64,000 bases of DNA from an uncultured Candidatus Woesearchaeota archaeon (GCA_963724455.1 CAVRUV010000022.1:2821-66820), one strand, 5' to 3'. Shown: positions 2,773 through 64,000, numbered from the stretch's first letter. Numbers and translations: made by a program. The notes: generated from the letters alone by a model not told the origin.

Positions 2773-2887
2773 CGCCGACACTCGGATTTGAACCGAGAAT
2801 CCTTTCGGAGCAGTTACCTCGGGATGCCTCTTTTGAATGTCTCAGAGGTTTCGAGACTGCCGCAATACCGGGTTATGCGATGTCGGC
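2773..2887 (-). tRNA. tRNA-Ser(CGA) with a ~34-nt intron in the anticodon loop
   Basis: Acceptor GCCGACA/TGTCGGC, discriminator G. Anticodon stem GCAGT/ACTGC flanks CTCGAA + insert + A. Long variable arm TCCGAAAGGATT (class II). T-arm CTCGG-TTCAAAT-CCGAG. No encoded CCA. Confidence 0.8.
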
Positions 2888-9304: not shown

Positions 9305-9421
9305 CTATCGGCTTTTTGCGCTGTGCTATAAAAAACTTTGCGCCAATCATTGCGCTAACCATTGGATTTGTTCGAATGCGGAGTGCAAAAGTATAAATAA
9401 CTCATATTGCGCCCGTAAATT

Positions 9422-13631: not shown

Positions 13632-16600
13632 GTGGTAGGTGTGAACTCTAAGAAATATATCTTATCAAGCTTACTAGTTGCAAGTATAATTGTCATTATA
13701 ATTCTTAAATCATCATATGTCGAAGGAAGGCAAATTATCGATGGTGAGCCTACTTGTCCGCCTAGTACTTGCTCTACAGAAGGCAGTATGTGCACTGGTG
13801 CTAATGCAGGTAAAACTTGTACGTTTATAGATAACGGTATTTGTTCAAGATTATATTGTGCATGTACACCAAGTTGCACAGGAAAAACTTGTGGAAGCAA
13901 TGGTTGTGGAGGAACTTGTGGTAGTTGTGATGATACTTACCAAACTTGCAGTGCTGGAAACTGCATCATTGCTCCAGATTATTGTCCTAGAACAAAAAGC
14001 CCAGTAAGTACAGTGCCGCAATTGTATATGTCTTTTGTTGCTTCTTCTGATATTTCTGCTACAAGAACTGTGAACTTAACAACTTCTTCTACTTTATGTC
14101 CTATTGGTACAGGGTCACTTCAACAATGCAGTACTTGGGATAGTAATAATGTTACTTGTCTTGCTAATGGTTGTTCATACTCTTATGCATATAATTTTTG
14201 TGCACCTAAAACTACTTATGATGCAACTTGTGCTGGCATATTAGATCCGACGACATGTAATAGTGCAAGCAGTCCTAGTAGTGGCCATTGTCAATGGTTT
14301 GATGGGGGAGTAGATCCGAGTTATTGTGAAGTAAAACAGCCTGATTGTTATAGTCCGGTGGATGCAGGGACTTGTGATGCTATAGCGGGTTGTAAGTGGA
14401 ATTTGGGAGAATGTAGTGAGTATGCTCCGTATCCGAATGAAGGAATGTGCATTAGGTATGATAATTCATTTTGTGATGTAAATTATTGTGATTACACCTC
14501 GCCAGTTCAATGTAATGCGGCATATAATCATGGTGCGTGTGAGATGAAAACCTCTCCAGCTTCATGCTTTGGAACACCAACTTTTCAAGTTGCAACCGGC
14601 TCTGTTACTATAGGATCTTCTTCATTAAAAGTATATGAAAGAACTGATTGGGTAGTGCCTTGGTGGTCTTATGAATCTTGTTCTTTCTGGCGTTGTACTA
14701 CAAAAGAAAGTAATACTCCTCATTATTTTATTGGTACTTGCACAGTTGGAAATGCTTGCAATTGGGCTGATGGGTGTAGAATTAAACAATGTGATGTTTA
14801 TTCAAAAGATGAAGTTAGGGTGACTCCTAGTTTGTCTGGTCCATGGAGCAATCCTGGTGGATGGACTGCGACAAAAGTTCATATTTCCGGACCTGATGAA
14901 TCTTTAGCAGATATGTGTTGGGGTGCAGGATTTACTAGTTTATACATTCCTGCAGCGCCATGTTGTGCCGCAAGTACATTTGGATGTAATGTCTGCGGCG
15001 GTTGTGGTGCAAATGTATGTAGTGATACAAGCGCAAATTGTAATGTTGGTGCAGTCTCTGGCGGGGTAAATAATTGTCCTGTTGCAGCAGTTTGTCAAGG
15101 TGCATGTACTCCTGAGTCAGATCCTGGTTTGTGTTCTAGATTGGGAAAAAATTGTGGCAGTTTAACTGCTCCTGATAATTGTAATAATTCTAGGACTGTA
15201 AATTGTGGTCCTACTACTGATAATAATGCTTGCACGCAAACTGATACTTGTACTAATAACGTTGTTGTTGGTAGTAATCCTGTTATATGTACTGCATCTG
15301 ATCAGTGTCACAGTATAGGTGTTTGTGATACTTCTTCTGGTGTATGTTCTAATCCTACTAAGGCTAATGGTGCTGTTTGCAATGATGCTAATGCTTGTAC
15401 TAGTGGAGATTCTTGCCAAACTGGTGTTTGTGTCGGAACGCCTTTGTCGGTAATTGGTGCTGCTTGTAACGATGGCAATGCCTGTACTACTAATGATGTT
15501 TATACTAATGCTTGTGGCGCTTGTGCTGGAAATGCAATAACTTGTACTGCTTTAGATCAGTGTCATGTTGCAGGAGTTTGTAATTCTGGTACTGGAATTT
15601 GTACTAATCTAAATAAGGCTAATGGTGCATCTTGTAGTGATAGTAATGCTTGCACTACTGGTGATGTTTGTTTTAGCGGTTCTTGTAATCCAGGTTCTCC
15701 TTTAAATTGTAATGATGCTAATTCTTGTACTACTGATTCTTGTAATGCTATGATTGGATGTGTTAATGCTAATAATCCGGTTAATGGTGCTTGGGGTGCG
15801 CCAGTTACATGGAATCCTTGGGTTGATGTTGGTTCTTGTGGTACTTATCAGCCTAGTTTGCAGCGTCAGGATAGATCGGGATTGTTGACTTGTAATGGTG
15901 CTTCTTGTGGCGGTATTTGTCCTGGTAGTTCTGCTACTTCTGATATTCAGTATATTGCTTGTTGTGTTCCTGTAAATGGTACTTATGACAATCCTATTAC
16001 TTGGGGTCCTTGGGTGAATACTGGTGTTTGCGGTGCTTATGTTTCTGGTAAACAGAATCAAACTCGTACTGGTACTAAAACTTGTAGTGGTACTTGTGGC
16101 GGTACTTGCCCTGGTAGTCCTACTGTTACAGAAGTTCAGTCGATTTATCCTTACTCTGGTTCATGTTCAGCTTGTGTGTGCAGCGGTGTTGCAGGTACAT
16201 TCAATACTTGCACTAATGTTTGTGATGGTAGAACTTGTTCAGCTCCGCCTAATTATGGTACTGCTTGCAATAGTGCTCCTAATAATTGCGGCACTAAAAA
16301 TGCTGGTTCTTACTTATGCGATGGAGTATCATGTTCTGCTGCTGCTCCTGCTGATGTTCCTCTAGTTTGCGCTGCAGCAGTAGATGTTGCATGCAATGCT
16401 CCTATCACCAAAGTGTCTGGTTGTGCTAGCGCCACTTGTTCTGGAAAAGGTACTAAGTGCGCTGTTGGTCTTGTTTGTGATAGCACTCTTGGCTGTATTG
16501 CTGCTTGTGGTGATGGTGCTTGTTCTGCTGGCGAGAATAGCGGTTCTTGTCCTACTGATTGTCCTATTTCTTGTGGCGATGGTTTGTGTAATGGTGTTGA

Positions 16601-17174
16601 AAATTGCTTGAATTGCGCTAGTGATTGCGGTACTTGCTCTTTTGGATGGACTGGTCGTTTGTTGAACGGTAGCAATCCTACTCAGAAAGTGACTACTGAA
16701 GGTTATGTTTACATTAATGGTAAGTCTTATGTTGTAAGCAATGGCGACATTGCTGTAGCTGGTGTTCCTGGCGGTACGTGGAGTGTTTCTGCTGGAGCAA
16801 CTGGTTTTGGAATGAATACTACTAGCATTGTGTTTAGCGGAAGCAGTAATACAGTTGCTGATATTGTTTTACCTGTTGAGTCTTGCAGTAGTTTGTGCGT
16901 TCTTGGTAACCGTTGTGATTATTCTTGTCCTGGTTGCGGCAGTGTAGACGCTGATGTGCAGGTTGCTTGTCGCGATAAAGAGGCGGGTATTATTCGTTCT
17001 GTAGACAATACTCGCGATATATTGTGCTGTGTTGGTAATGCGGTATCAAAGAGTACTTATCGTACAGAATTCGAGTTGTACAGTACCTATGGTCGTATTG
17101 CAAAAACCGAACGAACAGTATCTTATGGTGGCGTAGATTATCGCGCAGAAATATTCACTTGGGATAAAAAATAA
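13632..17174 (+). CDS. Giant secreted/anchored cysteine-rich surface protein (1180 aa)
   Basis: GTG start, N-terminal TM/signal (ILSSLLVASIIVIIIL), Cys throughout. Has tandem C.D.NACT.GD.C..G.C units, two W..W...G.CG...Q.R.G..C.G.CGG.CPG units and CGDG.C..GEN...CP.DC motifs. Confidence 0.8.
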   Translation: MVGVNSKKYILSSLLVASIIVIIILKSSYVEGRQIIDGEPTCPPSTCSTEGSMCTGANAGKTCTFIDNGICSRLYCACTPSCTGKTCGSNGCGGTCGSCDDTYQTCSAGNCIIAPDYCPRTKSPVSTVPQLYMSFVASSDISATRTVNLTTSSTLCPIGTGSLQQCSTWDSNNVTCLANGCSYSYAYNFCAPKTTYDATCAGILDPTTCNSASSPSSGHCQWFDGGVDPSYCEVKQPDCYSPVDAGTCDAIAGCKWNLGECSEYAPYPNEGMCIRYDNSFCDVNYCDYTSPVQCNAAYNHGACEMKTSPASCFGTPTFQVATGSVTIGSSSLKVYERTDWVVPWWSYESCSFWRCTTKESNTPHYFIGTCTVGNACNWADGCRIKQCDVYSKDEVRVTPSLSGPWSNPGGWTATKVHISGPDESLADMCWGAGFTSLYIPAAPCCAASTFGCNVCGGCGANVCSDTSANCNVGAVSGGVNNCPVAAVCQGACTPESDPGLCSRLGKNCGSLTAPDNCNNSRTVNCGPTTDNNACTQTDTCTNNVVVGSNPVICTASDQCHSIGVCDTSSGVCSNPTKANGAVCNDANACTSGDSCQTGVCVGTPLSVIGAACNDGNACTTNDVYTNACGACAGNAITCTALDQCHVAGVCNSGTGICTNLNKANGASCSDSNACTTGDVCFSGSCNPGSPLNCNDANSCTTDSCNAMIGCVNANNPVNGAWGAPVTWNPWVDVGSCGTYQPSLQRQDRSGLLTCNGASCGGICPGSSATSDIQYIACCVPVNGTYDNPITWGPWVNTGVCGAYVSGKQNQTRTGTKTCSGTCGGTCPGSPTVTEVQSIYPYSGSCSACVCSGVAGTFNTCTNVCDGRTCSAPPNYGTACNSAPNNCGTKNAGSYLCDGVSCSAAAPADVPLVCAAAVDVACNAPITKVSGCASATCSGKGTKCAVGLVCDSTLGCIAACGDGACSAGENSGSCPTDCPISCGDGLCNGVENCLNCASDCGTCSFGWTGRLLNGSNPTQKVTTEGYVYINGKSYVVSNGDIAVAGVPGGTWSVSAGATGFGMNTTSIVFSGSSNTVADIVLPVESCSSLCVLGNRCDYSCPGCGSVDADVQVACRDKEAGIIRSVDNTRDILCCVGNAVSKSTYRTEFELYSTYGRIAKTERTVSYGGVDYRAEIFTWDKK

Positions 17175-51416: not shown

Positions 51417-53087
51417 CTAATATCCGCTGATACCATCAGTATCGCAGTTTGCAGGGTCATCAAAGCAGTTGCCCATCTTAACTGATCGTTCTGCTTTTTC
51501 TGTTCCTACTTTTATTACAACTCCGAATGTCTCTTTAGTGACTGTACTTGCAGTATCTCCAAAGACTGGAATGTATGATGTTGCTTTTTCTAAGCCTTTA
51601 CCTAGCAATACTCCGCCCTTTAGTACGCGTGCTCTGCCAGGATCGATAGCTCCCGATGTTACTTTTTCGTTAATTTTGTTAATCTTATCAGTTGTTTCTT
51701 TTACTGCGGTATAAGTCTCTTTTGCCTTATCGTAGTAGCCTTTTGCTTTTTCAATTGTATTACCAATTTTTTCAAGCTTCTCATTTACCTTTTCCATCTT
51801 CTCATTTACTTTTTCATAAGCTTCTTGTGCTTTCTCAAGTTTATCTTTGACTGATGGAGGTGCGTTTTTATCAATCCAACCAGTTCCCATTTTTTTAAGT
51901 TTTTCTTTAGCTGCTTCAGTTGCAGCTTCGGTTGCTGAATCGATCTTATCACCGACAGCCTTTGCTGCTTTATCATAAGTATTCTTCTTTAGTGTATTTG
52001 CTATATCATCAAGACGACCATTTTCTTCATGCTTGCTTTTGATATCTTCAAGTAATTTCTTTTGATCTTCTTTATTCATATCTTGTCTTTTTTGTTTTTC
52101 TTTTATGAATTCTTTTGTGATGGCATCGCGCATGTCTTTATCTTCAACGCCATCTAGAGTAGATGATAATCTGGATTTTTTCTCTTCATCAGCAGTTGGA
52201 TTCTTTGTCTTATCAACGCCAGTAAAGACCTCTTTTACCTTATTTGCTGCAGCTTGTGCTTTGTCAGCTGCTGATTGTAATTTATCACCTGCAGCTGCTG
52301 CAGTCTCATCAATAGTCTTTGTTGTGCCAGAAACTTTATCGATTAATTTTTCCCACCAAGGTCTAGTATCTTCTTTTTTATCTTTAGTATCTTTATCAGT
52401 TGGAACTACAGGAATGTCTTTGGTATCTTTAGTTGTAGGAGTTGTTTCTTTTGTAGTTGTCGGCTTTGTGGTAGTTGGTTCTTTTGTAGTTGGCTCTTTA
52501 GTAGTTGGAACTATAGGTTCTTTAGTTGTAGGTTCTTTGGTTGTTGGAGTGGTTGGTTTTGCAGTATCTTTTGTTGTTGGAGTTGTAGGTTCAACTGCTG
52601 CTTTCATGCAACTTCCGCCACCAAGCCCGCCAGCAACCCAACTAAATCCAGTTCCACAATCAGCGGGCTTTCCCTCGCTTGATCTTCCTCTAGCAACTCC
52701 TGTTCTGCAATCAGTTTGTGCTGAGCCACTAAGTCCGTCGCAATCATTTGCACTTCCGCCTTTTGCGCCCACATTCTGGTAGCATTCATCTTGAGTATAA
52801 CTATTCATTCCACCAACGATTTTATCGCAAGGTTTTGGATCGTTTGTCTTATCAGCTACTTGCAAATAGCATTTATCTTTTGGAGGATTTTGTCCAACAA
52901 AACCAGTTCCTGGAATCTTATCGCAACCATCAGTTTCTCCTAATACTTCAGAGAGTTTTTGATAACAGTGATCGGTTCCTCTATTAGTTATTAGATTGCC
53001 TCCTTCGCAAATTGAGCAGCCCGATAGGCATCCTGTCATAAGAAAACTGACTGATATGAGAAAAATAATGAATTTAATGCTTACCAT
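51417..53087 (-). CDS. Secreted/lipoprotein-like surface protein: Cys-rich head, TKEPTT-repeat linker, long coiled-coil tail
   Basis: Signal with LMTGC, repeated D.CY(Q/L) Cys motifs, (P)TTKEPTTKEP repeats and a K/E/A-rich helical C-terminal half. Confidence 0.65.
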   Translation of the reverse strand: MVSIKFIIFLISVSFLMTGCLSGCSICEGGNLITNRGTDHCYQKLSEVLGETDGCDKIPGTGFVGQNPPKDKCYLQVADKTNDPKPCDKIVGGMNSYTQDECYQNVGAKGGSANDCDGLSGSAQTDCRTGVARGRSSEGKPADCGTGFSWVAGGLGGGSCMKAAVEPTTPTTKDTAKPTTPTTKEPTTKEPIVPTTKEPTTKEPTTTKPTTTKETTPTTKDTKDIPVVPTDKDTKDKKEDTRPWWEKLIDKVSGTTKTIDETAAAAGDKLQSAADKAQAAANKVKEVFTGVDKTKNPTADEEKKSRLSSTLDGVEDKDMRDAITKEFIKEKQKRQDMNKEDQKKLLEDIKSKHEENGRLDDIANTLKKNTYDKAAKAVGDKIDSATEAATEAAKEKLKKMGTGWIDKNAPPSVKDKLEKAQEAYEKVNEKMEKVNEKLEKIGNTIEKAKGYYDKAKETYTAVKETTDKINKINEKVTSGAIDPGRARVLKGGVLLGKGLEKATSYIPVFGDTASTVTKETFGVVIKVGTEKAERSVKMGNCFDDPANCDTDGISGY

Positions 53088-53289: not shown

Positions 53290-54546
53290 TTATTTCTTGT
53301 TCTTTTCGCTTTTCTCTTTTGCAGCAGTTCCTTTTACACGTTTTACTAATCGTATAACGATGATTGCTACTACGATGAGCCATAAGAACCAATAGTCCAA
53401 AAAGACTGCTCGCAAGATGCTTTTATGTTCAATAGTGAGTGATATCTTTGTAGTATCTTGCAATTTTTTGCCTTGTGCATCCTCATAATCGACCAATAGG
53501 TCTAATCCATAAGTTCCCGCGGTGCCATCTTTATCTATTGTTGTTGTGAATTCAATCGGTTTTGATTCTCCGGTTGCTAATGTCTCAACATATCGTACAC
53601 TGCCATCGGTTGAGAATGGGTATTGTGGCAGCATCTTTATGCGCATTTTGCGCGCAGTATCTGTGCCGGTGTTTGTGATCTTGAATCTGATTGTGCGCAT
53701 ATTTTCTGCTGCAAATAATGAGTCGCTACCAGCATCAATTGTTGTGAACTGTGCTTTCTTTGTTACATGTAATACTAGGGGAATTGTGCGCTTTTGAGCA
53801 TTCAGGTTCTCATCTAAGTATGTTGCAGTAAGCACAAGGTCGTAATCTTTTGCAGCAGCATCTTTTGGTACTTCCAAATTGAATTGTGCATTTTTGCTCT
53901 CTTTAGCGTTGAGTGTTCCAAGACTCGTGGAGGTACTTGCCCATTTTATCTCTATTGGTGAAGGTGCAGAAAGCGTAAGTGTTGTTGTTTGCGCAGCATA
54001 TGATCCAGTATTTTCAACTTGTAATGTTATGCTTGCGCTATTGCCTGCATATACATCAACTGGATTAGAACTGATGATGCGCGCAGTAAGTTCCGGGCTT
54101 CCACTAATTTGTAAATTAATGATGTTAGTATTTGAAAATTGTGTCAATAGTGTAGTTTGATAATTATTTGTGATAGTAATTGGATATGTTCCTCCGTTTG
54201 CATTGGAGTCTATGTGCATTGGTATGCGCACAATCTTTTCTTGACCATCGCACATTTGCTCAACTGGCACTGTGCTTACTCCTTTTAGTGTGAATGGAGC
54301 ATTTGCTTGCACATTTGTTGTGATGCCCATTGCACATGGGGCTGGTTGAACATTTTGTAGGTGCAACACCAGTGTGAAGTCTTTTCCTACTTGAGCTTGT
54401 CCTTCTAGTATTTCAAATTTTGAGATTATGAGGTTTGGGCTATCAACTGCGTGGGCAGTAGGTATTGCGGCAAGCAGAATAAATAGGATTGTACTTATGA
54501 TTGCTGCTATGTGCATGATGTTTGTGTTGTTTTGTTGGGATGTCAT
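53290..54546 (-). CDS. Secreted beta-rich protein with C-terminal TM anchor (COG1361/CARDB-like S-layer-domain type)
   Basis: Signal peptide, three repeated ~100-aa beta-sandwich-like segments (…ITLQVENTGSYAA…, …RFKITNTGTDTA…) and a terminal TM plus basic tail. Commonly found next to ABC-2 transporters. Confidence 0.5.
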   Translation of the reverse strand: MTSQQNNTNIMHIAAIISTILFILLAAIPTAHAVDSPNLIISKFEILEGQAQVGKDFTLVLHLQNVQPAPCAMGITTNVQANAPFTLKGVSTVPVEQMCDGQEKIVRIPMHIDSNANGGTYPITITNNYQTTLLTQFSNTNIINLQISGSPELTARIISSNPVDVYAGNSASITLQVENTGSYAAQTTTLTLSAPSPIEIKWASTSTSLGTLNAKESKNAQFNLEVPKDAAAKDYDLVLTATYLDENLNAQKRTIPLVLHVTKKAQFTTIDAGSDSLFAAENMRTIRFKITNTGTDTARKMRIKMLPQYPFSTDGSVRYVETLATGESKPIEFTTTIDKDGTAGTYGLDLLVDYEDAQGKKLQDTTKISLTIEHKSILRAVFLDYWFLWLIVVAIIVIRLVKRVKGTAAKEKSEKNKK

Positions 54547-54666: not shown

Positions 54667-56286
54667 TTACTCTATATCACGTTTGAATACTTTGAATAGT
54701 ATTAGTATTAATATTGCTAAAAATAGTAAAAGTATTGATACCGGGAACAAAATTTCTGTAATTGAGAATCCTTTAACCATTACACCACGCAGTGCATCTC
54801 CTGCGTATGTTGCGGGAATAAATGCTGCAATGCCTTGCAAGTATGATGGCATGGATTGTATTGGGAAGAACGCTCCTGCAAGGAACATCGTCGGCATACT
54901 AACAACCATTGCAAGTGCCATATATTGCGGTTCAGTTTTTACCATGCTAGATAGTATCATACCAACTGCAGTTGAGATGCAGATATAGATTATGAGGATG
55001 AGTCCGATGAGTGCAAGGCTACCTTCAATCTTTATATTGAATAAAAGTATTGCAACTGCAATAAGGAATGCGGCTCTACATAATTCAAATAATACATAGA
55101 AGATTAGTGTTCCTGATAGAATTGTTGTGTTTGAGGTTGGTGTCAAGAATACTCTGGTAAGAGATCCTTCACGCTTTTCACCTACAACTGATCTGCCCAT
55201 ATTCATTACTGCACCTTGGAAGATTGTGAGCGCAATAAGGCTAGGAATAAGGAAGTCGATTGCTTGACGACCAGTTCCGTATGCAGGTTTTTCTTCATAG
55301 GTAAGAGGTTTTAGTAAAACATCTGAACGTTTTTTTGTAAATGTATGAACTGTGTTGAGTGCATGAATAACTTTTTGTTCGTATGTTTGTTTACGTGCAT
55401 GTGCTAGTGTGCTTCCAGTTGTTGCAAGTTGTGTTGCAGCAGCAAGTTCTTTTGCGTTTGCATCAATATTTTTCTTAGCACTATCTAATGATGCAATTTG
55501 TGCATGCATGCCATCTGCACTTGCTGGTTCGCGTACATAAGTATTATCTGTAGATATTGTCTCATTATCTTTTATGATACTAGGAGTGGTTATACTAGGT
55601 GATGGAAGATTTGATGCTATTGCTTTGATGTTCTGCGCAATAATTCCTCGTGCATAAATATCATTAGTTTGTGCTGCGAGCAAGTGTTGTTTGATTATGT
55701 CATATTGAGAATTATCGCTTGTAATGTATGCATCAAGATCATTTGCAGCATCATCGACTGTGCGTTGATCGGCGGTTAATTGTTGCATTGCAAGATTGTG
55801 CGCAAAATTGTTGATGATTGTATTTAATGCTTGTTTTGATGTTGCCGCTATGGCAGAGTCAGATTCATCTACAATAACTACAATTCCTCGTTGTACTCCT
55901 GCATCGATATCATTTTGTAAGTTAGGCGGAATTTCTATTATGACTCGCACATCTCCTAAATCCAGGAGTCTTCGAGCTTCACCTTCTGTACTTACAACTC
56001 TTGTTATTGAGAATACTTGATTTGATTGTATTGCTTGTTGCAAATCTTGTGATATTTGAGAATTGTCTTGTACTACAATAGCAGTAGAGATGTGTTTTGG
56101 AGTATTACCCGAACTAGATCCTAAAACAAGCATCATGACTATTGGGAATATTAATAATGGAATAAGACGTACTTTATCACGAGTGAGTACGATGAAATTT
56201 TTACGAATGATTGCTTTAACTTTTTTAAGATCGAAGAGTTTTTCATGATATTCAGTATCGTTTGTTGTTTGTTTTTTCGATGCCAT
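54667..56286 (-). CDS. ABC-2 type transporter permease with a large extracytoplasmic loop
   Basis: N-terminal TM, a ~300-aa loop, then five C-terminal TM segments with ABC-2 membrane-domain character. Confidence 0.7.
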   Translation of the reverse strand: MASKKQTTNDTEYHEKLFDLKKVKAIIRKNFIVLTRDKVRLIPLLIFPIVMMLVLGSSSGNTPKHISTAIVVQDNSQISQDLQQAIQSNQVFSITRVVSTEGEARRLLDLGDVRVIIEIPPNLQNDIDAGVQRGIVVIVDESDSAIAATSKQALNTIINNFAHNLAMQQLTADQRTVDDAANDLDAYITSDNSQYDIIKQHLLAAQTNDIYARGIIAQNIKAIASNLPSPSITTPSIIKDNETISTDNTYVREPASADGMHAQIASLDSAKKNIDANAKELAAATQLATTGSTLAHARKQTYEQKVIHALNTVHTFTKKRSDVLLKPLTYEEKPAYGTGRQAIDFLIPSLIALTIFQGAVMNMGRSVVGEKREGSLTRVFLTPTSNTTILSGTLIFYVLFELCRAAFLIAVAILLFNIKIEGSLALIGLILIIYICISTAVGMILSSMVKTEPQYMALAMVVSMPTMFLAGAFFPIQSMPSYLQGIAAFIPATYAGDALRGVMVKGFSITEILFPVSILLLFLAILILILFKVFKRDIE

Positions 56287-56328
56287 AGTAATTATTTTTC
56301 TGTTTGTATTAGTTTGTAGTGTGTTTTT

Positions 56329-57375
56329 TTAATCTCGTAAATCTTTTTTTGTAAGTTGAATGAATACTTCTTCGAGTGACGGTTCGCGTAAACGTATTTC
56401 TTCAATTTCAATTCTACGCTTGTGGAAGAAATCGCTGATGCGATAAAACATTTTTTCTTTGTGCTGTGTTATGATGAGTATTTTACGTTCGTGATCATGA
56501 TGTTCTACTCTAGTAACTCCAGGTATCTTTCGTATATCTGCAAGAAGTTCTTTACTTGGTGAATCTATCATTACTTCAAAAGTATGGCCGTCGCTAATCA
56601 TGTGTTTTAGCTCATCGCTTGTTCCGTCTGCGATAATTTTTCCTTTGTCCATGATGACTATTCTATCGCAGATTTTTTCTGCTTCTTCCATATCGTGTGT
56701 TGTGTAGATTATAGTCATACCTTCAGAATTTAATTTTTGAGTAATTTCACGCATAGCGATTCTACTTTGTGGATCAAGGCCTGTTGTTGGTTCATCCATG
56801 AAAAGAATTTTAGGATTTGAAATGATGCTTGTAGCAAGCGATAATCGTTGTTTCATTCCGCCGGAAAATACTCCTGCAATTCTATCTTTGTGCTCATAGA
56901 GTGAGACATGTTTTAGAAGATATTCGGAGCGCTCTTTAATCTCTTTATCACTCATGCCGTATAGTTGTCCGATATACTCAAGGTTTTCTTGTGCAGTAAG
57001 TTCTGGAAATAGCGCAAATGTTTGTGGAACAACGCCGATTGCGCTTCTGATTTTTACTCCTTCTTTTACAAGATCATGATTAGAAACAATTGCAGTTCCA
57101 GAAGTTGGTTTGATAAGCGTTGTGAGCATGCTAATGGTTGTAGTTTTTCCTGCGCCATTAGGGCCTAGAAAACCGAAAATTTCGCCTTCTCGAATGACTA
57201 GATTCATATTATCGACTGCAGTGAACTTGCCAAAACGTTTAGAGAGATTTTTTATTTCGATAATATTACGTTTGCTTGTCGTTTTATCCACATCACACCA
57301 CTTATCAGGGTGCCCTTTAGGGTTATATAAACTTACTGCAATATGAGCTTCTTTGTTAAAAAATAATTTATACAA
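56329..57375 (-). CDS. ABC transporter ATP-binding protein
   Basis: Walker A GPNGAGKTTT, signature FSGGMKQRL, Walker B LFMDEPTTGLD, H-loop TTHDM. Confidence 0.9.
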   Translation of the reverse strand: MYKLFFNKEAHIAVSLYNPKGHPDKWCDVDKTTSKRNIIEIKNLSKRFGKFTAVDNMNLVIREGEIFGFLGPNGAGKTTTISMLTTLIKPTSGTAIVSNHDLVKEGVKIRSAIGVVPQTFALFPELTAQENLEYIGQLYGMSDKEIKERSEYLLKHVSLYEHKDRIAGVFSGGMKQRLSLATSIISNPKILFMDEPTTGLDPQSRIAMREITQKLNSEGMTIIYTTHDMEEAEKICDRIVIMDKGKIIADGTSDELKHMISDGHTFEVMIDSPSKELLADIRKIPGVTRVEHHDHERKILIITQHKEKMFYRISDFFHKRRIEIEEIRLREPSLEEVFIQLTKKDLRD

Positions 57376-57479: not shown

Positions 57480-59624
57480 TTATTTGATAATCGGTGTCGT
57501 TAGACGAATGTTCTGGTTAATTGCGAGCGTTGTAGTTATTGTTCCGCCGCATACGCATTTTCCCCCGTTTGCATTCATTTTTGCTTGACAATTATCAAAC
57601 GTGTCGCTGCAATATACTTGCGCACCTGTTGCATCCGTACATACATTACGTAGCTCAGTACATGTTGGTGGCGGGTTTACCCATCCGCATTCACACTTGC
57701 TGAATTGTTTCAGGCATGCATCGAGTGTATTATCGCAGCGTATCTTCGTAACTGCAATTGCAGTATCTGAGTAACATGTTTGCGATTTTTCAGTACAGCT
57801 TGGTGGTTGTGCGCAAGCACGTTCAGTACATATGACTCTTCCGTTCTCGCTACATGAGCACTTATTGCATCCGTCGTTTGCTGCAAACGAATCACCGACA
57901 TTATATTTGTGGTCGTTATATACACATGTTACATCGCAGCTATTGCTACCACAGTATGCTTTTCCGTCCCTACATACGCAGGTGTTGCAACCATCTGTTG
58001 CTTTGAATTGTTCACCTTGCTTGTAGGTTTGGTCATTATAGCTGCAATCTCCTTGCGGTATTGGCACGCCACACGAACAAGTTTGTTTGTACTTCTCATT
58101 GCAGTATGCAAATGTGCCCGGGCATATTTTTTCATTGCCCGCTTCATCTAAGCAAGCATTGCGCGTCTCTTTACAGTCTGCTGTTTGTGCGCAAGTATTT
58201 TTTGTACAAGTTACTCCGTCACCAGTGCATTTACATCGATTGCAGTTATCTCCTGCTGAGAATGATTCACCGAGCTTATAGGTCTGATCTTTGTAGACGC
58301 AGGTTTTTGTATCGGGTGGAACTCCGCCGCAAGTACAACGCTGATATTTTGCAACGCATTCTTCATAGGTGCCTTCGCACTTTACAGATTGCTGTGCAAT
58401 TACTGCAACTGCTGTTTGTATTTGCGGTGTTGGTGGATAACACATGTTGCGTGTTTCTTCGCACGTTTTAGGTGGAGGAATTCCGCAAACACATTTTCCG
58501 CCCGCTTCTTGATAGCGTTTGGCGCAATCTTCATACTTGCCTTCACATTTTATAGTTTCTGTTGTTAAAGATGCAGCTGCAATTGATGCAGTTGCAGGTT
58601 TTTGCAAGTAACATAGATGTACTGTTTGTTGACAGGAACTATCTTGAGGTGGAATGCCGCAAGTGCATGAATTTCTATATTTATCATTACAGGATGCAAG
58701 TGTTCCTTCACAAACTACTGGTTTTTGTGTTGCAGGGTCTAAGCATTGGTTGCTTTTTTCTTCACATAGATTCTTGAAGCAACCGATTACTTTACAGCTC
58801 TCTCCGAATTTTGCAACGCATCTAGGTAGTGGTGCTGGGCAGACAAAACTTCCCCCTTGAGGATATTGGCATAATACTGTGTTGCATGGATTGCAACTGT
58901 TGTCATCTGATCCGCCGGAATTTGTTTGTCCTGCAGGATTGTTGTTGCCATTATCATTATTGCCGCCTTGGTTGTTAGAACCTGATGTGCGAACGCATCT
59001 GCAGTTTTCTTTTCCGAATTTTTCAAGACATGCTTTCTCGTCGGCTTTTGAACAGACTGTTTCTTTGCCATCTTTTTTGCAAGTCAAAGATTCTCTTTCA
59101 TTGCAACTGATAGTAGTATCATTTGTACTGTTATTTGTATTTTCATTTGTTGGAGTAGTTGGGGTATCGGTAGTTGATGTTCCATTAAATGGTACATCTT
59201 GTGGTTTGCCGCATCTGCATTGTCCGTATTTTGCAACGCAATCAGTAAAGCTACCTTCACATAAAATCTTTCCTTCAGCGCCAAAGCAAGTATTCACTTT
59301 TTCTTCGCAAGTATTTGCTGCATCTTTTATGTCGTTATTGTTGCCGGTGATTGCCCACCATATTCTTTTGAAAAATCCTGGTGGATTTGTTGGTGGTGTA
59401 TTTGAGCCATCGCCATTTTTTGGAGTACAATAACTATCTTGACAAGTACTGCCTGCACAACAAGTGTCTATTGGTGCACCTGCAGCATCTTTGCTGAGTT
59501 CGCATGCTTTCCAATCTGGTGTACATGATGTTGTTGCTGCGTGAGTAGTTGTGCTCATTACAGCCAGTAGTGTTAGTAAAATAAAACAGAATAGTATATT
59601 GTGTATTCTAAGATGTTTATCCAT
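57480..59624 (-). CDS. Secreted cysteine-rich modular protein (714 aa) with VWC-like modules
   Basis: Signal peptide (ILLTLLAVMSTTTHA). About eight copies of a C.E.(R/S)N.C...C.G(T/K).(E/A).C..K(Y/F)...C.CG.PP module. Three tandem C.Y.D..Y..G(E/D).F.A.D.CN.C.C...G...C....C modules. Confidence 0.8.
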   Translation of the reverse strand: MDKHLRIHNILFCFILLTLLAVMSTTTHAATTSCTPDWKACELSKDAAGAPIDTCCAGSTCQDSYCTPKNGDGSNTPPTNPPGFFKRIWWAITGNNNDIKDAANTCEEKVNTCFGAEGKILCEGSFTDCVAKYGQCRCGKPQDVPFNGTSTTDTPTTPTNENTNNSTNDTTISCNERESLTCKKDGKETVCSKADEKACLEKFGKENCRCVRTSGSNNQGGNNDNGNNNPAGQTNSGGSDDNSCNPCNTVLCQYPQGGSFVCPAPLPRCVAKFGESCKVIGCFKNLCEEKSNQCLDPATQKPVVCEGTLASCNDKYRNSCTCGIPPQDSSCQQTVHLCYLQKPATASIAAASLTTETIKCEGKYEDCAKRYQEAGGKCVCGIPPPKTCEETRNMCYPPTPQIQTAVAVIAQQSVKCEGTYEECVAKYQRCTCGGVPPDTKTCVYKDQTYKLGESFSAGDNCNRCKCTGDGVTCTKNTCAQTADCKETRNACLDEAGNEKICPGTFAYCNEKYKQTCSCGVPIPQGDCSYNDQTYKQGEQFKATDGCNTCVCRDGKAYCGSNSCDVTCVYNDHKYNVGDSFAANDGCNKCSCSENGRVICTERACAQPPSCTEKSQTCYSDTAIAVTKIRCDNTLDACLKQFSKCECGWVNPPPTCTELRNVCTDATGAQVYCSDTFDNCQAKMNANGGKCVCGGTITTTLAINQNIRLTTPIIK

Positions 59625-60367: not shown

Positions 60368-61357
60368 TTACCAATCTGCAGTAAAAGAGGTCTCGTCTTT
60401 TGGGGGCGATGTAGGCGGTGTCGGACTGCTCTCAAAGAGTTTACCTAGCTTTCCTGGAGTTCCCATTACCCAATTAAGAGAATTGCCTACAACGTGTACT
60501 GGTCCTTCGATATGCACTTCTAATGGCGCTGTTGCCACAGTACTTCCACATTTTGCGCTCATTACTCCTGTAATATCAAGGCCGAATGGGATGTTACCTG
60601 GTACGAGCATTGTGTAGTTGAGTGTGTATGGATATTCTGGCCCAAAAGATCCTAATTTGTAATGGCTGCCAAGAATTGGTGCATCTAAATCAAGACTTAT
60701 ATTTACAGAGTCATTGAATCCTGGACTAGCAGTGATAACAATTACATAAGGAATATTCTCTCCTTTAGGAACTGTTATTGTTTGCGGCGTTACACTAATT
60801 GCGCAAAGCGCACTACTTGAACCTAAAGATATGTTTGTATTGTTGCTATCTGCTGCATTATCTGCAGTGAATGTTCCTGTAATTTTTTCATATGTGAATT
60901 GCACATCTTCGTATAATGGAGCGCTCTTATTTTCTTTGTACTCTTTTATATCTACAATATTTGCGTTATCGAGAGTTATTGTATAGATTCCTTTTTTTCC
61001 AGTTTTAATTGGGAAGAAAATTATTACTTTTGTTAATCGCTCATTTGTTGTTATTGCACTGAGTATTTTTGGCGTATTCTTATCGACTTCTTTTGTAATT
61101 GAAAGTGGTGAGTGTTTTATTTTTCCAGTTGATAATCCGGATGATGCGTCCGTTGGAGAAGATATCTGTTGCATGAATTCATCAATCGGAATTGGTGCTG
61201 CGTTATTAGCAATCACTCCCTGTTTAACTGCAGTCATTGTCAATATTGGTTCTTTTAGTGTGTTGCTATCTAGTGATCCTGTATCGGTTTTTGTACATGC
61301 AGTTATACTTATGATAAGAATAAAAAAGAAAAATAAGAAAATTGGAGTTCGGCTCAT
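60368..61357 (-). CDS. Lipoprotein-like Hcp-family domain fused to a C-terminal beta-rich domain
   Basis: Leader MSRTPIFLFFFFILIISITAC. Hcp-like core SSGLSTGKIKHSPLSITKEVDKNTPKILSAITTNERLTKVIIFF, YTITLDNANIVDI, EDVQFTYEKITGTF. A ~150-aa extra domain follows. Confidence 0.7.
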   Translation of the reverse strand: MSRTPIFLFFFFILIISITACTKTDTGSLDSNTLKEPILTMTAVKQGVIANNAAPIPIDEFMQQISSPTDASSGLSTGKIKHSPLSITKEVDKNTPKILSAITTNERLTKVIIFFPIKTGKKGIYTITLDNANIVDIKEYKENKSAPLYEDVQFTYEKITGTFTADNAADSNNTNISLGSSSALCAISVTPQTITVPKGENIPYVIVITASPGFNDSVNISLDLDAPILGSHYKLGSFGPEYPYTLNYTMLVPGNIPFGLDITGVMSAKCGSTVATAPLEVHIEGPVHVVGNSLNWVMGTPGKLGKLFESSPTPPTSPPKDETSFTADW

Positions 61358-61387
61358 GAAGTGATCCTCGATTGAGACTCTCTCTTC

Positions 61388-61936
61388 TTATGCTACCGTT
61401 TCCCAATCATCACTTGCTGTTGTTGCACCAGGTAAGTAATCCCATTGGATTTTTTGGTAAGTAAAACTCACAGTATCGGTTGGTGTTGTGCTTGGTGCAC
61501 CATTTACAGAAGGAAATTCTGTCTTAATATTAGATATGTGTGCGTTAGTTAACGTGACTTTGAAATAATTCTCTTCAGTACCAGTTCCTCCTGATGAAGG
61601 TCTTGTGAATATTAATGTAACAGTAGGCAGATTTTCATTAGTAACAAGAGCTTGGTATAGTTGCGGTGTTGAAACATCGACGGATTTTGTAATGGATAAT
61701 GCTTTATGCTGGCGTTTTCCAGTGGCTAGACCTGAAGCTGCATCTCTTGGAGAATTTATTTCGTGTGAGTATCCATATGCTACAATCTCGCCAGGATGAG
61801 CTTTTGCTGTTGAGCCGCCTTTGAGCTTGCCTTGCTTTTGAGCATTAATTGAGACAAAGATCTCTGCGCTAACTAAGCTCGAGACCATGATTGCGATGAG
61901 AATGAAACTGAATATTTTTAATCCGCTTGTGTTCAT
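61388..61936 (-). CDS. Secreted Hcp-family (T6SS tube protein-like) protein
   Basis: Leader MNTSGLKIFSFILIAIMVSSLVSA. Core GEIVAYGYSHEINSP, ASGLATGKRQHKALSITKSVDVSTPQLYQALVTNENLPTVTLIFTR, NYFKVTLTNAHISNI, DTVSFTYQKIQWDY tracks Hcp1-family blocks. Confidence 0.75.
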   Translation of the reverse strand: MNTSGLKIFSFILIAIMVSSLVSAEIFVSINAQKQGKLKGGSTAKAHPGEIVAYGYSHEINSPRDAASGLATGKRQHKALSITKSVDVSTPQLYQALVTNENLPTVTLIFTRPSSGGTGTEENYFKVTLTNAHISNIKTEFPSVNGAPSTTPTDTVSFTYQKIQWDYLPGATTASDDWETVA

Positions 61937-62060
61937 AAAAATCCACCCTTGACGATTTTATATGTTATCTATAAAAAAGTATTCCTTAATGATTATGAAA
62001 AAAAATAGTATAATAAAAATAATAAAAATAGAATGAAAAGAAAGGATTATGCTCAAGATT

Positions 62061-64000
62061 TTATTTCTTGAACTTGCGTACCAAGTACCATCCAAGTCCT
62101 ATCACAATTAATGCTATGAGTATCCATAACATCATTAGTGATGAACTTCCGCCACCAGTTACTGCACCAGTAAGGTCGTTACCTGCTGGTTTATCACCGG
62201 TTGTGTTTTGTGGAGGAGTTGTTGTTCCGCCATTGCCTTCAACATTGTTGCCGCCATCACCGCTAATAGTTGTATCTACAGGTGGTTTTTCATTGTTTGG
62301 TGGTGGGGTGGTTGGAGGTGGTATGTTTGATTTTACACAGAAAGTGCCTTCACGAACATATCCTTCAGCGCAAGTTCCAGCAGTTAATCCGCCGCCAGCT
62401 CCTGCTCCTGATCTACCACCGCAACTCTTTGTGCATACGCCGCCGCAATCAACACCTTGTTCATTTTGGTTCTTAACTCCATCAGAGCAAGTTTGTTGTG
62501 GGTTATTGTTGCATTGGTTGTCGTAGAAGTAACCGCCGCATACTCCGCCGCAGTCAATTCCGGTTTCATTCAAGCTTGTGTCTTTTTGTCCGTTGTAGCA
62601 TGTTGCAGTATCGCTATCTACTCCATAAACATAGACTGTATCAATTGTGCTTGCAACAATATTGTATAGTGTTCCTCTACTATTGTTGGTTACTTTTTGT
62701 AATTCTATGTCTAGGAAATCACTACCTCTATTTGCTACCCAAATAGGTGTACCATCTGCTTTGAATGCATGCACGCCATCATTTCTTGTTCCAATGATGA
62801 AGTCGTTATGTGCATCGCCATCAACATCACCAACTGCAAGAAGGTTAATTTCGCGGGCGTAATTGTTGCCAGTGTTGTAGTTATATGGTATAGATTCAGG
62901 GTTCTGTCCAATATATGGCTTCATAAGAACAATATTACCGTTCTTATCGAGCACATAGATTGTGTCGTGATTCACACCATCAGTAACTGCAACTATCTTA
63001 CCAGCACCTAGGTCTCCTAGTGCTATATCTACTGGGATTTCGTAGTTAGTTTGTGTAAACCATACTGGATTCAGGTAGTTACCATCGCTGTTGTGTGCAA
63101 ATTTGTACATGACAAGGCCATATCCGTTTTGTTTTATGCCTGCTACAATTTCTGCTTTTCCGTCGCCATCAACATCACCGACTTTTACACTCTGACCATA
63201 TACTTCTTCATATGTGATTTCAGAGTAGTCTACTCCTGAAAATACACGTAGTGGTTCTCTATTTGTGTCAATTGATACAATATCAAGCGTTCCATCGCCA
63301 TTGATATCTCCAATTGCTACATTGCTTGAACCATAAACTTCAAAGTTGTGTAGCTCGTCAAGATATGGTATCTTGTCGCTGTTTTCTTTAACTTTAAACA
63401 CATATAATCCGTTAGTAGTTCCTACGATTATTTCATTAAAGCCATCTTTATCTAGATCGGCTAATTTGATTGCTGTAACTGGACCATTCAAATCACAGCT
63501 ACCGCCACTATTAACAATGTAATTCCCATTCTTATCAAAAACTGTAATGCCTGTGCATTCACCATCATCGTTTGCAATGACCACTTCATTGCCCGGGTAG
63601 TAATAATCTGTACTACTGTTTCCATCATAGACATTTCCGATAGCTGTTCGTTGGCCGTAACCGGGTGTATCCCAGTAATTCCATAGTTGGCTTCCGCTAC
63701 TTCCATCAAATGCTATTGTGGATTCAGAGTCATCGTTATATGCATCGTACGATGTTTGTACCACTACATCATCAAGATTTCCTTCACCAGTTAGTTTTCC
63801 TACGAAAACATCTGCAATAGAGAATACTCTTTCACTCCATAGTTCATATGGTGCTCTACTAAATGTTGCTAGAGTCATATCTGCACCGTAATTGTCTTGG
63901 TTATCTATTTCTGTGCAGAATGTGCTTTGATGATTTGTACATAGAAGTTCTGGGAAGCTCCATGGTGTTCCTATTGGAGTCTCTAGTGTTCCAAATCCTG
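62061..64000 (-). CDS. FG-GAP/VCBS-repeat (integrin-alpha-like beta-propeller) surface protein, C-terminal TM anchor; N-terminus beyond the window
   Basis: Repeats ADLDKDGFNEIIVG, GDINGDGTLDIV, GDVDGDGKAEIV, GDVDGDAHNDFIIG; G(I/V)DCGGVC Cys motifs; P/T/G linker; TM plus RKFKK. The reading frame stays open from 63878 to 64000, so the track start is an internal Met. Confidence 0.8.
   Translation of the reverse strand, partial: GFGTLETPIGTPWSFPELLCTNHQSTFCTEIDNQDNYGADMTLATFSRAPYELWSERVFSIADVFVGKLTGEGNLDDVVVQTSYDAYNDDSESTIAFDGSSGSQLWNYWDTPGYGQRTAIGNVYDGNSSTDYYYPGNEVVIANDDGECTGITVFDKNGNYIVNSGGSCDLNGPVTAIKLADLDKDGFNEIIVGTTNGLYVFKVKENSDKIPYLDELHNFEVYGSSNVAIGDINGDGTLDIVSIDTNREPLRVFSGVDYSEITYEEVYGQSVKVGDVDGDGKAEIVAGIKQNGYGLVMYKFAHNSDGNYLNPVWFTQTNYEIPVDIALGDLGAGKIVAVTDGVNHDTIYVLDKNGNIVLMKPYIGQNPESIPYNYNTGNNYAREINLLAVGDVDGDAHNDFIIGTRNDGVHAFKADGTPIWVANRGSDFLDIELQKVTNNSRGTLYNIVASTIDTVYVYGVDSDTATCYNGQKDTSLNETGIDCGGVCGGYFYDNQCNNNPQQTCSDGVKNQNEQGVDCGGVCTKSCGGRSGAGAGGGLTAGTCAEGYVREGTFCVKSNIPPPTTPPPNNEKPPVDTTISGDGGNNVEGNGGTTTPPQNTTGDKPAGNDLTGAVTGGGSSSLMMLWILIALIVIGLGWYLVRKFKK

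Follow-up and report, generated by a model that had tools for sequence, protein, structure and literature searches.

This analysis concerns two adjacent genes, termed here hcpA and hcpB, on the minus strand of a 64,000-nucleotide stretch of DNA (the window) from an uncultured Candidatus Woesearchaeota archaeon (GCA_963724455.1 CAVRUV010000022.1:2821-66820). Both genes encode proteins of the Hcp/TssD family, the tube proteins in type VI secretion systems (T6SS), and both open with a predicted export signal. A preliminary description of the window, made from the sequence alone, had drawn attention to these tandem open reading frames (ORFs), whose coordinates and quoted sequence blocks are all borne out; Table 1 gives the features of the locus and its surroundings.

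By sequence, and in the case of HcpB also by predicted fold, HcpA and HcpB are genuine members of the Hcp/TssD family. The Pfam and Foldseek searches that the preliminary description had recommended both recover Hcp. Against PF05638 (cut-off 23.5 bits) HcpA scores 116 bits (E=1.4e-33) and HcpB 66 bits (E=4e-18); against TIGR03344, the model for the T6SS tube protein TssD (cut-off 58.9 bits), they score 134 and 78.6 bits. A phmmer search of the Protein Data Bank (PDB) with HcpA aligns solved Hcps across residues 31-180, all at E~4e-22, among them 3HE1 (Pseudomonas aeruginosa Hcp3), 5MXN (Vibrio cholerae Hcp in a sheath-tube complex), 5URW (Myxococcus xanthus) and 6A2V (Campylobacter jejuni). 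The AlphaFold2 (AF2) model of HcpB has a mean predicted local distance difference test score (pLDDT) of 77, with Hcp-domain blocks at 85-98, and the top 26 Foldseek matches to it are all Hcp chains or Hcp1 fusions; against stand-alone solved Hcps the target-normalised template-modelling score (TM-score) is 0.65-0.76, with E down to 4e-11. Because profile and structure searches thus concur, the assignment of the Hcp fold stands. HcpA is, moreover, 46% identical over its whole length to an Hcp encoded inside a complete T6SS locus (L015), between TssBC and TssE, and it shares with T6SS Hcp the motif SPRDAxSGLxTGKRQH of the β2-β3 loop as well as the DDW at the C-terminus. A hidden Markov model (HMM) scan of all ORFs revealed no Hcp copies beyond the pair.

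Table 1. Features of the hcpA-hcpB locus, followed by those of the surrounding region (window positions unless marked L001, an independent assembly; an arrow marks a predicted cleavage site).
Feature	Position	Strand	Basis
hcpA: Hcp/TssD-family protein, 182 amino acids (aa), Sec-type signal peptide	61388..61936	-	PF05638, TIGR03344, PDB phmmer
hcpB: 329 aa; predicted lipobox leader (Cys21), ~17-aa tether, Hcp domain ~38-165, linker, Ig-like domain ~185-284, Pro-rich tail, terminal SFTADW strand	60368..61357	-	PF05638, TIGR03344, AF2, Foldseek
HcpA predicted signal peptide, residues 1-~23/24: n-region MNTSGLK, h-region IFSFILIAIMVSSLV, c-region SA	61867..61936	-	direct reading, homologue leaders
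HcpB predicted lipoprotein-type leader MSRTPIFLFFFFILIISITA↓C, lipobox I-T-A-C	61295..61357	-	direct reading, kept in P0138
HcpB predicted Ig-like β-sandwich, residues ~185-284, motif Y-x-L-G-x-x-x-P-x-Y-P	60506..60805	-	AF2
HcpB C-terminal tail: GPVHVVGNSLNWVMGTPGKLGKLF (kept in the fusion family), Pro-rich segment, terminal SFTADW	60371..60505	-	alignment, AF2
Region upstream of the pair: AT-rich, TTTTTATA box ~45 nt upstream, Shine-Dalgarno (SD)-like GGGTGG 6 nt before the hcpA ATG	61937..62000	-	direct reading
30-bp intergenic spacer with SD-like GAGGATCAC 3 nt before the hcpB ATG	61358..61387	-	direct reading
Upstream neighbour: 1,628-aa signal-peptide/HYR/FG-GAP/Cys-rich protein with C-terminal transmembrane anchor	62061..64000 + L001:4990-9876	-	L001 assembly
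Cys-rich secreted protein, 714 aa, repeated modules	57480..59624	-	
Cys-rich secreted protein, 1,128 aa, repeated modules	13788..17174	+	
ABC-2 transporter	54667..57207		
CARDB/NEW3-domain surface protein	53290..54546	-	

Judged by the classical rules, HcpA would carry a type I Sec signal peptide: it has a positively charged n-region, an h-region within the usual 7-15 residues (a 15-residue hydrophobic core) and small residues at -3/-1 (V-S-A). Cleavage is predicted at VSA↓EIF, after residue 24, and would leave ~158 aa of mature protein, in essence a canonical Hcp; EIFVSINAQKQGKLKG, the residues just past the predicted cut, line up with the very start, (M)ALNAYLKLKGQKQGEIKG, of leaderless Hcps. 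HcpB instead begins with MSR and a hydrophobic core, TPIFLFFFFILIIS, followed by ITA↓C, with the cysteine at position 21; by rule this agrees with the lipobox motif [LVI][ASTVI][GAS]C that closes the h-region (motif definition from PMC12462473), and a tether of ~17 residues, TKTDTGSLDSNTLKEPI, separates it from the first Hcp strand. The only close homologue of HcpB, P0138 (51% identity), keeps both the lipobox--here V-G-C with L at -3--and the residues that follow it (LVG↓CTKT). The one plausible internal start in HcpB, Met41, is Ile in P0138, so that a downstream hcpB start is not conserved. A second candidate lipobox protein lies in the same window (51417..53087, minus strand; LMTG↓C), and a 2025 survey predicts lipobox lipoproteins to be prevalent in DPANN archaea and reports the presence there of a candidate lipidation enzyme, AliA (PMC12462473). 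Because the two genes are only 30 bp apart, they are probably co-transcribed as one operon, and the TTTTTATA box and the GGGTGG motif ahead of hcpA would be a candidate promoter and ribosome-binding site.

The C-terminal half of HcpB, which the preliminary description had correctly recognised as a beta-rich domain, is predicted by AF2 to fold into an eight-stranded immunoglobulin (Ig)-like β-sandwich (pLDDT ~80-86). This domain has no match in Pfam or NCBIfam, and with it Foldseek retrieves only generic sandwiches of the Ig-like, macroglobulin (MG), carbohydrate-binding module (CBM) and RhoGDI types, at E~3e-4. An exhaustive HMMER search with the C-terminal half finds 89 relatives at E<=1e-3, which fall into four groups: (i) other Hcp fusions (P0138, P0139, P0141, P0154 and P0163); (ii) small, stand-alone secreted proteins that end in an amphipathic ...NNLF helix (P0146, P0149); (iii) proteins consisting of a transmembrane segment, a Pro/Thr linker and the domain (P0150, P0162, P0171, P0201); and (iv) giant surface proteins with tandem arrays of up to 22 copies. 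(The motif shared by this family, for which there is no Pfam model, is YxLGxxxPPYPxT; the members listed also include P0140 and P0144.) Because of the company that it keeps in these four groups, the domain is best regarded, from its relatives and its modelled fold, as an uncharacterised cell-surface Ig-like domain and not as a toxin.

Beyond this domain the HcpB model has pLDDT <50 (residues 287-320) and then a β-strand (residues 324-328), and MAFFT aligns W329 with the C-terminal DDW of canonical Hcps; the Ig-like domain may thus have been inserted ahead of the last Hcp element. The sequence S[FY]TA[DN]W ends both HcpB (residues 320-329; 60368..60400, minus strand) and P0138, whose Hcp domains proper are without the DDW motif; unlike these two, P0154 and a protein from a further archaeal locus (L016, described below) keep DSW ahead of the Ig-like domain. 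When the whole HcpB model is compared by Foldseek with the tail tube protein gpV of phage lambda (7T4F, 8IYD, 8IYK), 278-297 columns are aligned, but with a TM-score of only 0.22-0.29 and a high root-mean-square deviation, the orientation of the domains being different. C-terminal Ig-like domains do occur on non-contractile tubes of the siphovirus type (lambda gpV, T5 pb6, YSD1), from which they project outside (tail-protein review, PMC8718954); an external domain of this kind would be expected to clash with a close-fitting TssBC sheath.

Pairs of the same design occur in other archaea, although word-indexed homology searches with HcpB or the fusion alignment returned only 2-3 proteins. On a 72.7-kb contig of 48% GC (L007, labelled Woesearchaeota), a 184-aa Hcp with a clear predicted Sec leader, MKLLAIFLLACMLVMPAYG↓AAYLKIGDIKGE, precedes a long fusion (P0163), the genes overlapping by 4 bp; NCBI annotates this fusion as 'T6SS tube protein Hcp [Candidatus Woesearchaeota archaeon]'. 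On a contig of 63% GC (L009, also labelled Woesearchaeota), a 177-aa leader-Hcp is followed, after a 10-bp gap, by a 278-aa leader-Hcp-Ig fusion (P0139), and a further contig with the same label (L010) shares the SMC synteny of L009, with the pair cut by the contig end. The orthologues have diverged strongly: one of the two short proteins is 43% and the other, that of L007, 24% identical to HcpA, and the two long ones are 34% and 24% identical to HcpB. The flanks are entirely different: the L007 pair is surrounded by genes for a Na+/H+ exchanger, a PIN/MazE pair, dihydroorotate dehydrogenase, SepF and TFIIE-alpha, whereas the L009 pair lies between RNase HII/NUDIX and SMC. By sequence comparison, then, a short leader-Hcp followed by a long leader-Hcp-Ig protein is a conserved two-gene module in Woesearchaeota, and, since order, tight coupling and leaders are kept while the flanks differ fully, it would appear to be a self-contained unit under long-term selection. 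For the same reason the adhesin-rich surroundings in the window, on which the preliminary description had laid stress, are incidental: they are not conserved at L007 or L009. No T6SS-associated family occurs at L007, L009 or L016.

A different kind of attachment is predicted for other members of this architecture. The metagenome contig L016 is archaeal (its aIF2-gamma scores 654 bits against TIGR03680, cut-off 514) but of another lineage, and encodes a 341-aa protein with a predicted signal peptide, ...LILVPGVVSA↓ILPAYMELVGENQG, a complete Hcp domain (150 bits against TIGR03344), an Ig-like domain like that of HcpB, and the tail SGFEIVVTVIALLVSVKVRRK. Archaeosortase recognises PGF-CTERM as the signal by which surface proteins of archaea are attached to lipid at their C-terminus; with the cut-off at 18.8 bits, P0154 scores 21.9 bits and the L016 tail falls just short, at 17.5 bits, while the HcpB tail, which is not hydrophobic enough, gives no PGF-CTERM match. 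Two unrelated tethers, a lipobox in one case and a PGF-CTERM or PGF-CTERM-like signal in the other, would therefore be attached to the same Hcp-Ig architecture, which suggests that its Hcp domains act outside the cell; these independent predicted anchors argue strongly, and more so than any other single observation, for display on the cell surface. (An Hcp from a Nitrosopumilus sp. metagenome-assembled genome, P0010 at L008:2-484, is 53% identical to HcpA and lies among archaeal-looking housekeeping genes; its ORF runs off the contig end and is uninformative about a leader.)

Hcps with leaders are not confined to these archaea. Among 129 proteins, comprising the 120 best cluster representatives for HcpA together with archaeal proteins, 49 have a hydrophobic leader with an AxA-type site directly before the canonical ALNAYL N-terminus, and four more have twin-arginine (Tat) motifs (P0095, P0101, P0105, P0113). 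Leader-bearing Hcps are thus, as far as such sequence features tell, a broad class that includes bacteria and is not specific to archaea. In a neighbour-joining tree of the 129 proteins, which is too weakly resolved to give the direction or number of transfers, leader forms fall into several clades, mostly basal to leaderless ones. A full-text literature search, of incomplete coverage, returned no description of signal-peptide Hcps or of archaeal Hcps, and nowhere found DPANN, Hcp and type VI secretion together.

Leader-bearing Hcps also differ from leaderless ones in their genomic surroundings. Five bacterial leader-Hcp loci show no T6SS genes in flanks of up to 10 kb per side, and every bacterial example that was inspected is an orphan within its retrieved flanks (exported Hcps occur at L002, L005, L011-L013, L020, L022 and L066), whereas the leaderless homologue P0103 lies inside a complete T6SS cluster, between TssBC and TssE. 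In addition, 80 further metagenomic Hcp loci, retrieved with fusion-alignment patterns, were sorted by N-terminus (by rule, with two divergent Woesearchaeota proteins assigned by hand), and their flanks were probed with eleven T6SS proteins of the P0103 cluster, disregarding ClpV-only matches as non-specific. T6SS core genes were found in the flanks of 55 of 72 leaderless loci but of none of 12 leader-bearing loci (Fisher p=4.6e-7); restricted to loci of >=5 kb, the counts are 41/52 and 0/10 (p=3.3e-6). Hence export of these Hcps, as predicted from their leaders, and their independence of the T6SS are well supported. The preliminary proposal is thus partly supported: conserved leaders, absence of T6SS linkage and predicted surface anchors all speak for Sec export and use outside the cell, as does the presence of the export signals claimed for HcpA and HcpB, whereas the extracellular rings or tubes and their use as a conduit, scaffold or effector carrier at a cell-cell interface are hypothetical.

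Two features of the leader-bearing proteins bear on what they may assemble into. At the β2-β3 loop the frequency of the top residue is 0.80-1.0, nearly as in leaderless Hcps. By contrast, the loop at HcpA residues 141-153 (~61478..61516, minus strand), which is fairly conserved in leaderless Hcps (MLNNKENMKHPEY), is hypervariable in leader-bearing ones; strand-order mapping suggests that it is the β5.2-β6.1 loop, which in the tube of V. cholerae is said to face the lumen (PMC8718954), and its variability could reflect either a changed lumen function or sampling bias. Within the wider class there are also other architectures. P0054 and P0058 combine a signal peptide, a coiled coil, a collagen triple helix (PF01391, 30.5 bits in P0058) and an Hcp domain, a layout which, like the stalk and head of C1q, would imply trimeric presentation of Hcp. 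A bacterial tandem pair (L002) consists of a 263-aa leader-Hcp (9166-9957) followed by a 184-aa leader-Hcp (P0009; 10001-10555), the former with C-terminal D-x-N-D-D repeats that look dockerin-like, an assignment not confirmed by Pfam.

That the host is an archaeon, as had been proposed, is corroborated by several lines of evidence. The window encodes a thermosome, FtsZ and the ribosomal proteins L11, S19e, L31e, L15e and S12, and its S12 falls within a >=90% identity cluster with Candidatus Woesearchaeota; together with an apparent intron-containing tRNA, these markers (in particular the thermosome, S19e, L15e, L31e and the S12 cluster) identify a Woesearchaeota (DPANN) contig. (The tRNA, a 115-nt Rfam match of 39.9 bits at 2773..2887 on the minus strand, was missed by ARAGORN and is most likely an archaeal tRNA with an intron.) The two Hcp genes are typical of the host genome in composition: their GC contents of 0.38 and 0.40 and third-position GC (GC3) of 0.26 and 0.28 compare with gene means of 0.383±0.041 and 0.296±0.057, and in codon usage they rank 15th and 17th of 63 genes. 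In an independent assembly from Logan (L001), the 3,723 bp shared with the window are 100% identical, and the contig reaches ~8 kb past the window's edge. That the contig is chimeric or a bacterial contaminant is accordingly ruled out by archaeal markers on both sides, by the identity with L001 and by the native composition. Likewise ruled out are mis-called gene starts, given the leaders in P0138, L007, L009, L016 and 49 of the 129 homologues; the replacement of Met41 by Ile in P0138 and the SD-like motifs before the annotated ATGs also oppose them.

The neighbours of the pair had been described as adhesion-type surface proteins, which needs correcting on both sides. The immediate downstream neighbour, 92 bp away, is the gene for S12 and not an adhesin. 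The upstream one, an FG-GAP/HYR surface protein, is longer than the window reveals: the 605-aa ORF seen there is only its C-terminal third, the window edge cutting off the rest, and further upstream on L001 lie small ORFs, an AAA-like protein and a coiled-coil giant. Past S12 come the 714-aa Cys-rich secreted protein, the ABC-2 transporter, the CARDB/NEW3 protein and the second lipobox protein, and envelope proteins dominate the 13-kb stretch (51-64 kb) that includes the pair. (The two Cys-rich secreted proteins of Table 1 give sub-threshold or barely-threshold matches to VWC, pacifastin and Dictyostelium repeats, which are of eukaryotic type and unusual in an archaeon.) No sheath, spike, baseplate, ClpV or phage-tail family was detected by Pfam among 20 poorly characterised neighbours (16 in the window and 4 upstream), and no T6SS or contractile injection system (CIS) family occurs among the precomputed Pfam families of L001. 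Both results concur with the earlier statement that no T6SS genes are in view, and a T6SS just outside the window is rejected for the ~8 kb beyond its edge that L001 covers.

From these observations, the reading that is given somewhat better than an even chance is that Hcp has here been repurposed as a Sec-exported surface protein that operates without a contractile machine, serving as a platform made of a ring or a short stack of rings, to which the cell's adhesion or the retention of partner proteins would be due. Both precursors would cross the single archaeal membrane unfolded, via Sec. HcpA would be cleaved after VSA, yielding a mature protein nearly identical in outline to canonical Hcp; HcpB would be cleaved at the lipobox and lipid-anchored through Cys21 or, if unprocessed, would be held by its leader--such processing and lipidation being what the leaders themselves would predict. 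The domains would then fold outside the cell, probably into hexameric rings like other Hcps, as may be inferred, on general grounds, from the 46% identity of HcpA to a T6SS-embedded Hcp. HcpB rings would lie flat on the membrane, with six ~17-residue N-terminal linkers leaving the same ring face; N-terminal attachments of this sort are compatible with a ring because Hcp1 forms the C-terminal end of the chain in the engineered hexameric fusions 4KSR, 6AP1 and 7O42, and all of them would presumably leave one face. The Ig-like domains of HcpB would point outward, much as they do in lambda gpV and other siphophage tube proteins, and HcpA rings would associate with or stack on HcpB rings to form a short, sheath-less stack or pillar. 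Rings and the co-assembly of HcpA with HcpB are thus a plausible expectation. In tail tubes, contact between rings is made chiefly by the β2-β3 loop (PMC8718954), so that the near-invariance of this loop in leader-Hcps favours a retained ability to stack. As to the role of the pair, one may speculate that it most likely provides an episymbiotic cell with a structural or binding platform at its surface, involved in adhesion or in keeping partner proteins within the ring lumen.

Several considerations weigh against this reading. The signal-peptide and lipobox calls come from classical rules, hydrophobicity and comparative conservation rather than from a trained predictor. The portion of the genome inspected amounts to ~72 kb, which leaves room for a CIS elsewhere. 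The scan for the pair, limited to one genome per GTDB species and to what its patterns could detect, yielded two further Woesearchaeota species only (L009 and L010). At L007 the short partner is of another Hcp subtype (24% identical to HcpA), so that such pairs may have originated on more than one occasion. The collagen-stalk fusions imply that a hexamer is not guaranteed throughout the class. The mature N-terminus, which also contributes to inter-ring contacts in tail tubes (PMC8718954), is far less conserved in leader-Hcps than in leaderless ones; Hcp tubes normally need a tail-tip or baseplate complex in order to polymerise (PMC8718954); and no nucleator gene is evident near the pair. These last three points--the variable N-terminus, the usual need for a tip complex and the lack of a nucleator nearby--are also why a short ring stack is preferred here over long tubes.

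The most serious competitor, unlikely but deserving of real weight, dispenses with rings altogether: the exported Hcp domains would serve on surface proteins as β-barrel binding modules, either monomeric or in some other oligomeric state, comparable to any further adhesin or ligand-binding domain and spaced by the Ig-like domain. The joining of Hcp to such varied devices as collagen stalks, Ig-like domains, PGF-CTERM and the dockerin-like tail of L002 (which Pfam does not confirm), the hypervariability of the N-terminus and of the 141-153 loop in leader-Hcps, and the abundance of adhesin-type proteins around the pair would all suit a module of this kind. It accounts less well for the whole-length identity of HcpA to the Hcp of a complete T6SS locus and for the nearly invariant inter-ring loop, which has no obvious role in a monomer, and that a plain and an anchored Hcp are kept together as a pair suggests that they interact. 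At the opposite extreme, it is doubtful, if conceivable, that Woesearchaeota and some other archaea build an external, sheath-less Hcp tube or stack, with lipid-anchored, Ig-decorated HcpB as base and free HcpA as polymer, as a conduit or docking pillar between DPANN episymbionts and their hosts. Such a structure would be a domesticated, non-contractile descendant of the T6SS or phage tail tube, and Sec- and Tat-exported Hcps would then be an unrecognised, T6SS-independent class of extracytoplasmic rings in bacteria as well as archaea. Slightly more doubtful still is the fully developed form of this idea, in which a long, non-contractile tube seated in the archaeal membrane would serve, like a siphophage tail, as a conduit to the host for metabolites or macromolecules. 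Retention of the tube fold and of the inter-ring loop, a combination of anchored and free subunits that fits a base and a polymerising unit, and a host lineage widely thought to be episymbiotic are in keeping with it, as is an Ig-decorated architecture like that of non-contractile phage tubes (the gpV match; PMC8718954). But no tape-measure, tip, terminator or nucleator gene lies nearby in the window flanks, L001 or L007; polymerisation normally depends on a tip complex, while the N-terminal contact region is variable; and the class also occurs in diderm bacteria that live freely, in which exported protein would reach no further than the periplasm.

The remaining alternatives are far less probable than any of these. 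Very little weight is given to the view that HcpA and HcpB are ordinary parts of a T6SS or CIS located elsewhere in the genome, their hydrophobic N-termini being artefactual or irrelevant. The limited ~72 kb inspected gives it some scope, an orphan leaderless hcp far from any T6SS does exist (L014), and extracellular CIS (eCIS) loci are known in some archaea. Yet leaders are conserved across divergent genomes, with predicted cleavage sites exactly at the canonical N-terminus; leader-Hcp loci lack the T6SS linkage of leaderless ones (0/12 versus 55/72); an Ig-like domain with lipid or PGF-CTERM anchors would seem unfit for loading inside a sheath; and a T6SS requires the diderm envelope complex TssJLM, no archaeal T6SS is known to us, and the tube proteins of eCIS belong to other families. 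More improbable again is that the pair is the remnant of an integrated virus or tailocin, that is, the tail tube genes of a siphovirus-like archaeal virus. The fold is common to phage major tail proteins, Ig decoration is typical of siphophage tubes, and there is a weak match to phrog_27303, a PHROG of unassigned function (E 4e-6 to 6e-15); but four archaeal loci are without capsid, portal, terminase, tape-measure or integrase genes and have S12, SMC, RNase HII and aIF2-gamma as neighbours, no relatives turned up in 2.9 million viral contigs within the sensitivity of the patterns used, the sequences resemble T6SS Hcp (TIGR03344) rather than phage major tail proteins and are native in composition, and, to our knowledge, phage tail tube proteins carry neither signal peptides nor membrane anchors. 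Equally hard to credit is HcpB as an evolved-Hcp toxin carrier (Hcp-ET-like) directed against neighbouring cells, with a C-terminal effector and with HcpA as helper. Both proteins are predicted to be exported, and Hcps with C-terminal toxin extensions are known in bacteria (Hcp1-toxin fusions, PMC3482391); but the extension of HcpB is modelled as a generic Ig-like sandwich of a type that recurs in 22-copy arrays and in transmembrane-anchored ectodomains, it shows no catalytic motifs, no immunity gene is adjacent in the window, L007 or L009, and lipid or PGF-CTERM anchoring would imply retention on the producing cell.

If the favoured reading, that of an exported surface platform, is correct, then a tube protein has acquired a second life outside the contractile machine. 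Hcp is treated as a hallmark of the T6SS, its presence is routinely taken as a sign that a T6SS is active, and a lack of leader is part of how it is defined, from which exported Hcps would depart; a label like 'type VI secretion system tube protein Hcp [Ca. Woesearchaeota]' would then be functionally misleading. More generally, the pair would illustrate how part of a bacterial or phage machine can be repurposed after moving across domains, and it offers a testable candidate for the surface structures that ultra-small archaea use for attachment to their hosts or for exchanging material with them. The pair is of interest both for the evolution of the T6SS and phage tails and for DPANN cell-surface biology.

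How the pair relates to known systems may be summarised as follows. With T6SS Hcp/TssD it has family and fold in common (3HE1, 5MXN). Canonical Hcp, however, is leaderless and cytoplasmic, polymerises within the TssBC sheath on VgrG and the baseplate, and is expelled by contraction, whereas HcpA and HcpB carry predicted Sec-type leaders, HcpB has in addition a lipobox and an Ig-like domain on the outside, their host is a monoderm archaeon, and in four genomes T6SS genes were not found beside the pair within the regions scanned. Two features of T6SS components, association with machine genes and leaderless status, are therefore missing, the former in the regions scanned and the latter on account of the predicted leaders. 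With Hcp-ET and Hcp1-toxin fusions HcpB shares an Hcp domain followed by a C-terminal extension; but those extensions are toxins delivered by the T6SS and accompanied by immunity genes, while that of HcpB appears to be a non-enzymatic Ig-like domain on a protein predicted to be Sec-exported and anchored.

Siphophage tube proteins (lambda gpV, T5 pb6, YSD1_22) offer a closer parallel, in that they consist of the same tube-fold domain and a C-terminal Ig-like sandwich, an arrangement reproduced in HcpB by AF2 domains at residues 38-165 and 185-284. They differ in that the sequence affinity of HcpB is with T6SS Hcp, its Ig-like domain is neither Big_1 nor Big_2, and it has a predicted signal peptide and anchor; nor does the pair belong to a viral tail module, as judged by the absence of viral genes at four archaeal loci and of relatives among viral contigs. 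Lipobox and PGF-CTERM signals are the standard lipid tethers of archaeal surface proteins: HcpB and P0138 appear to share the lipobox of the AliA/AliB proteins, and P0154 and the L016 protein have candidates for the PGF-CTERM signal of archaeosortase (ArtA) substrates, although we know of no archaeal surface protein with either tether that contains an Hcp domain. To judge from its sequences, therefore, the pair seems more like an Ig-decorated siphophage tube protein or a lipid-anchored archaeal surface protein than like a part of a T6SS.

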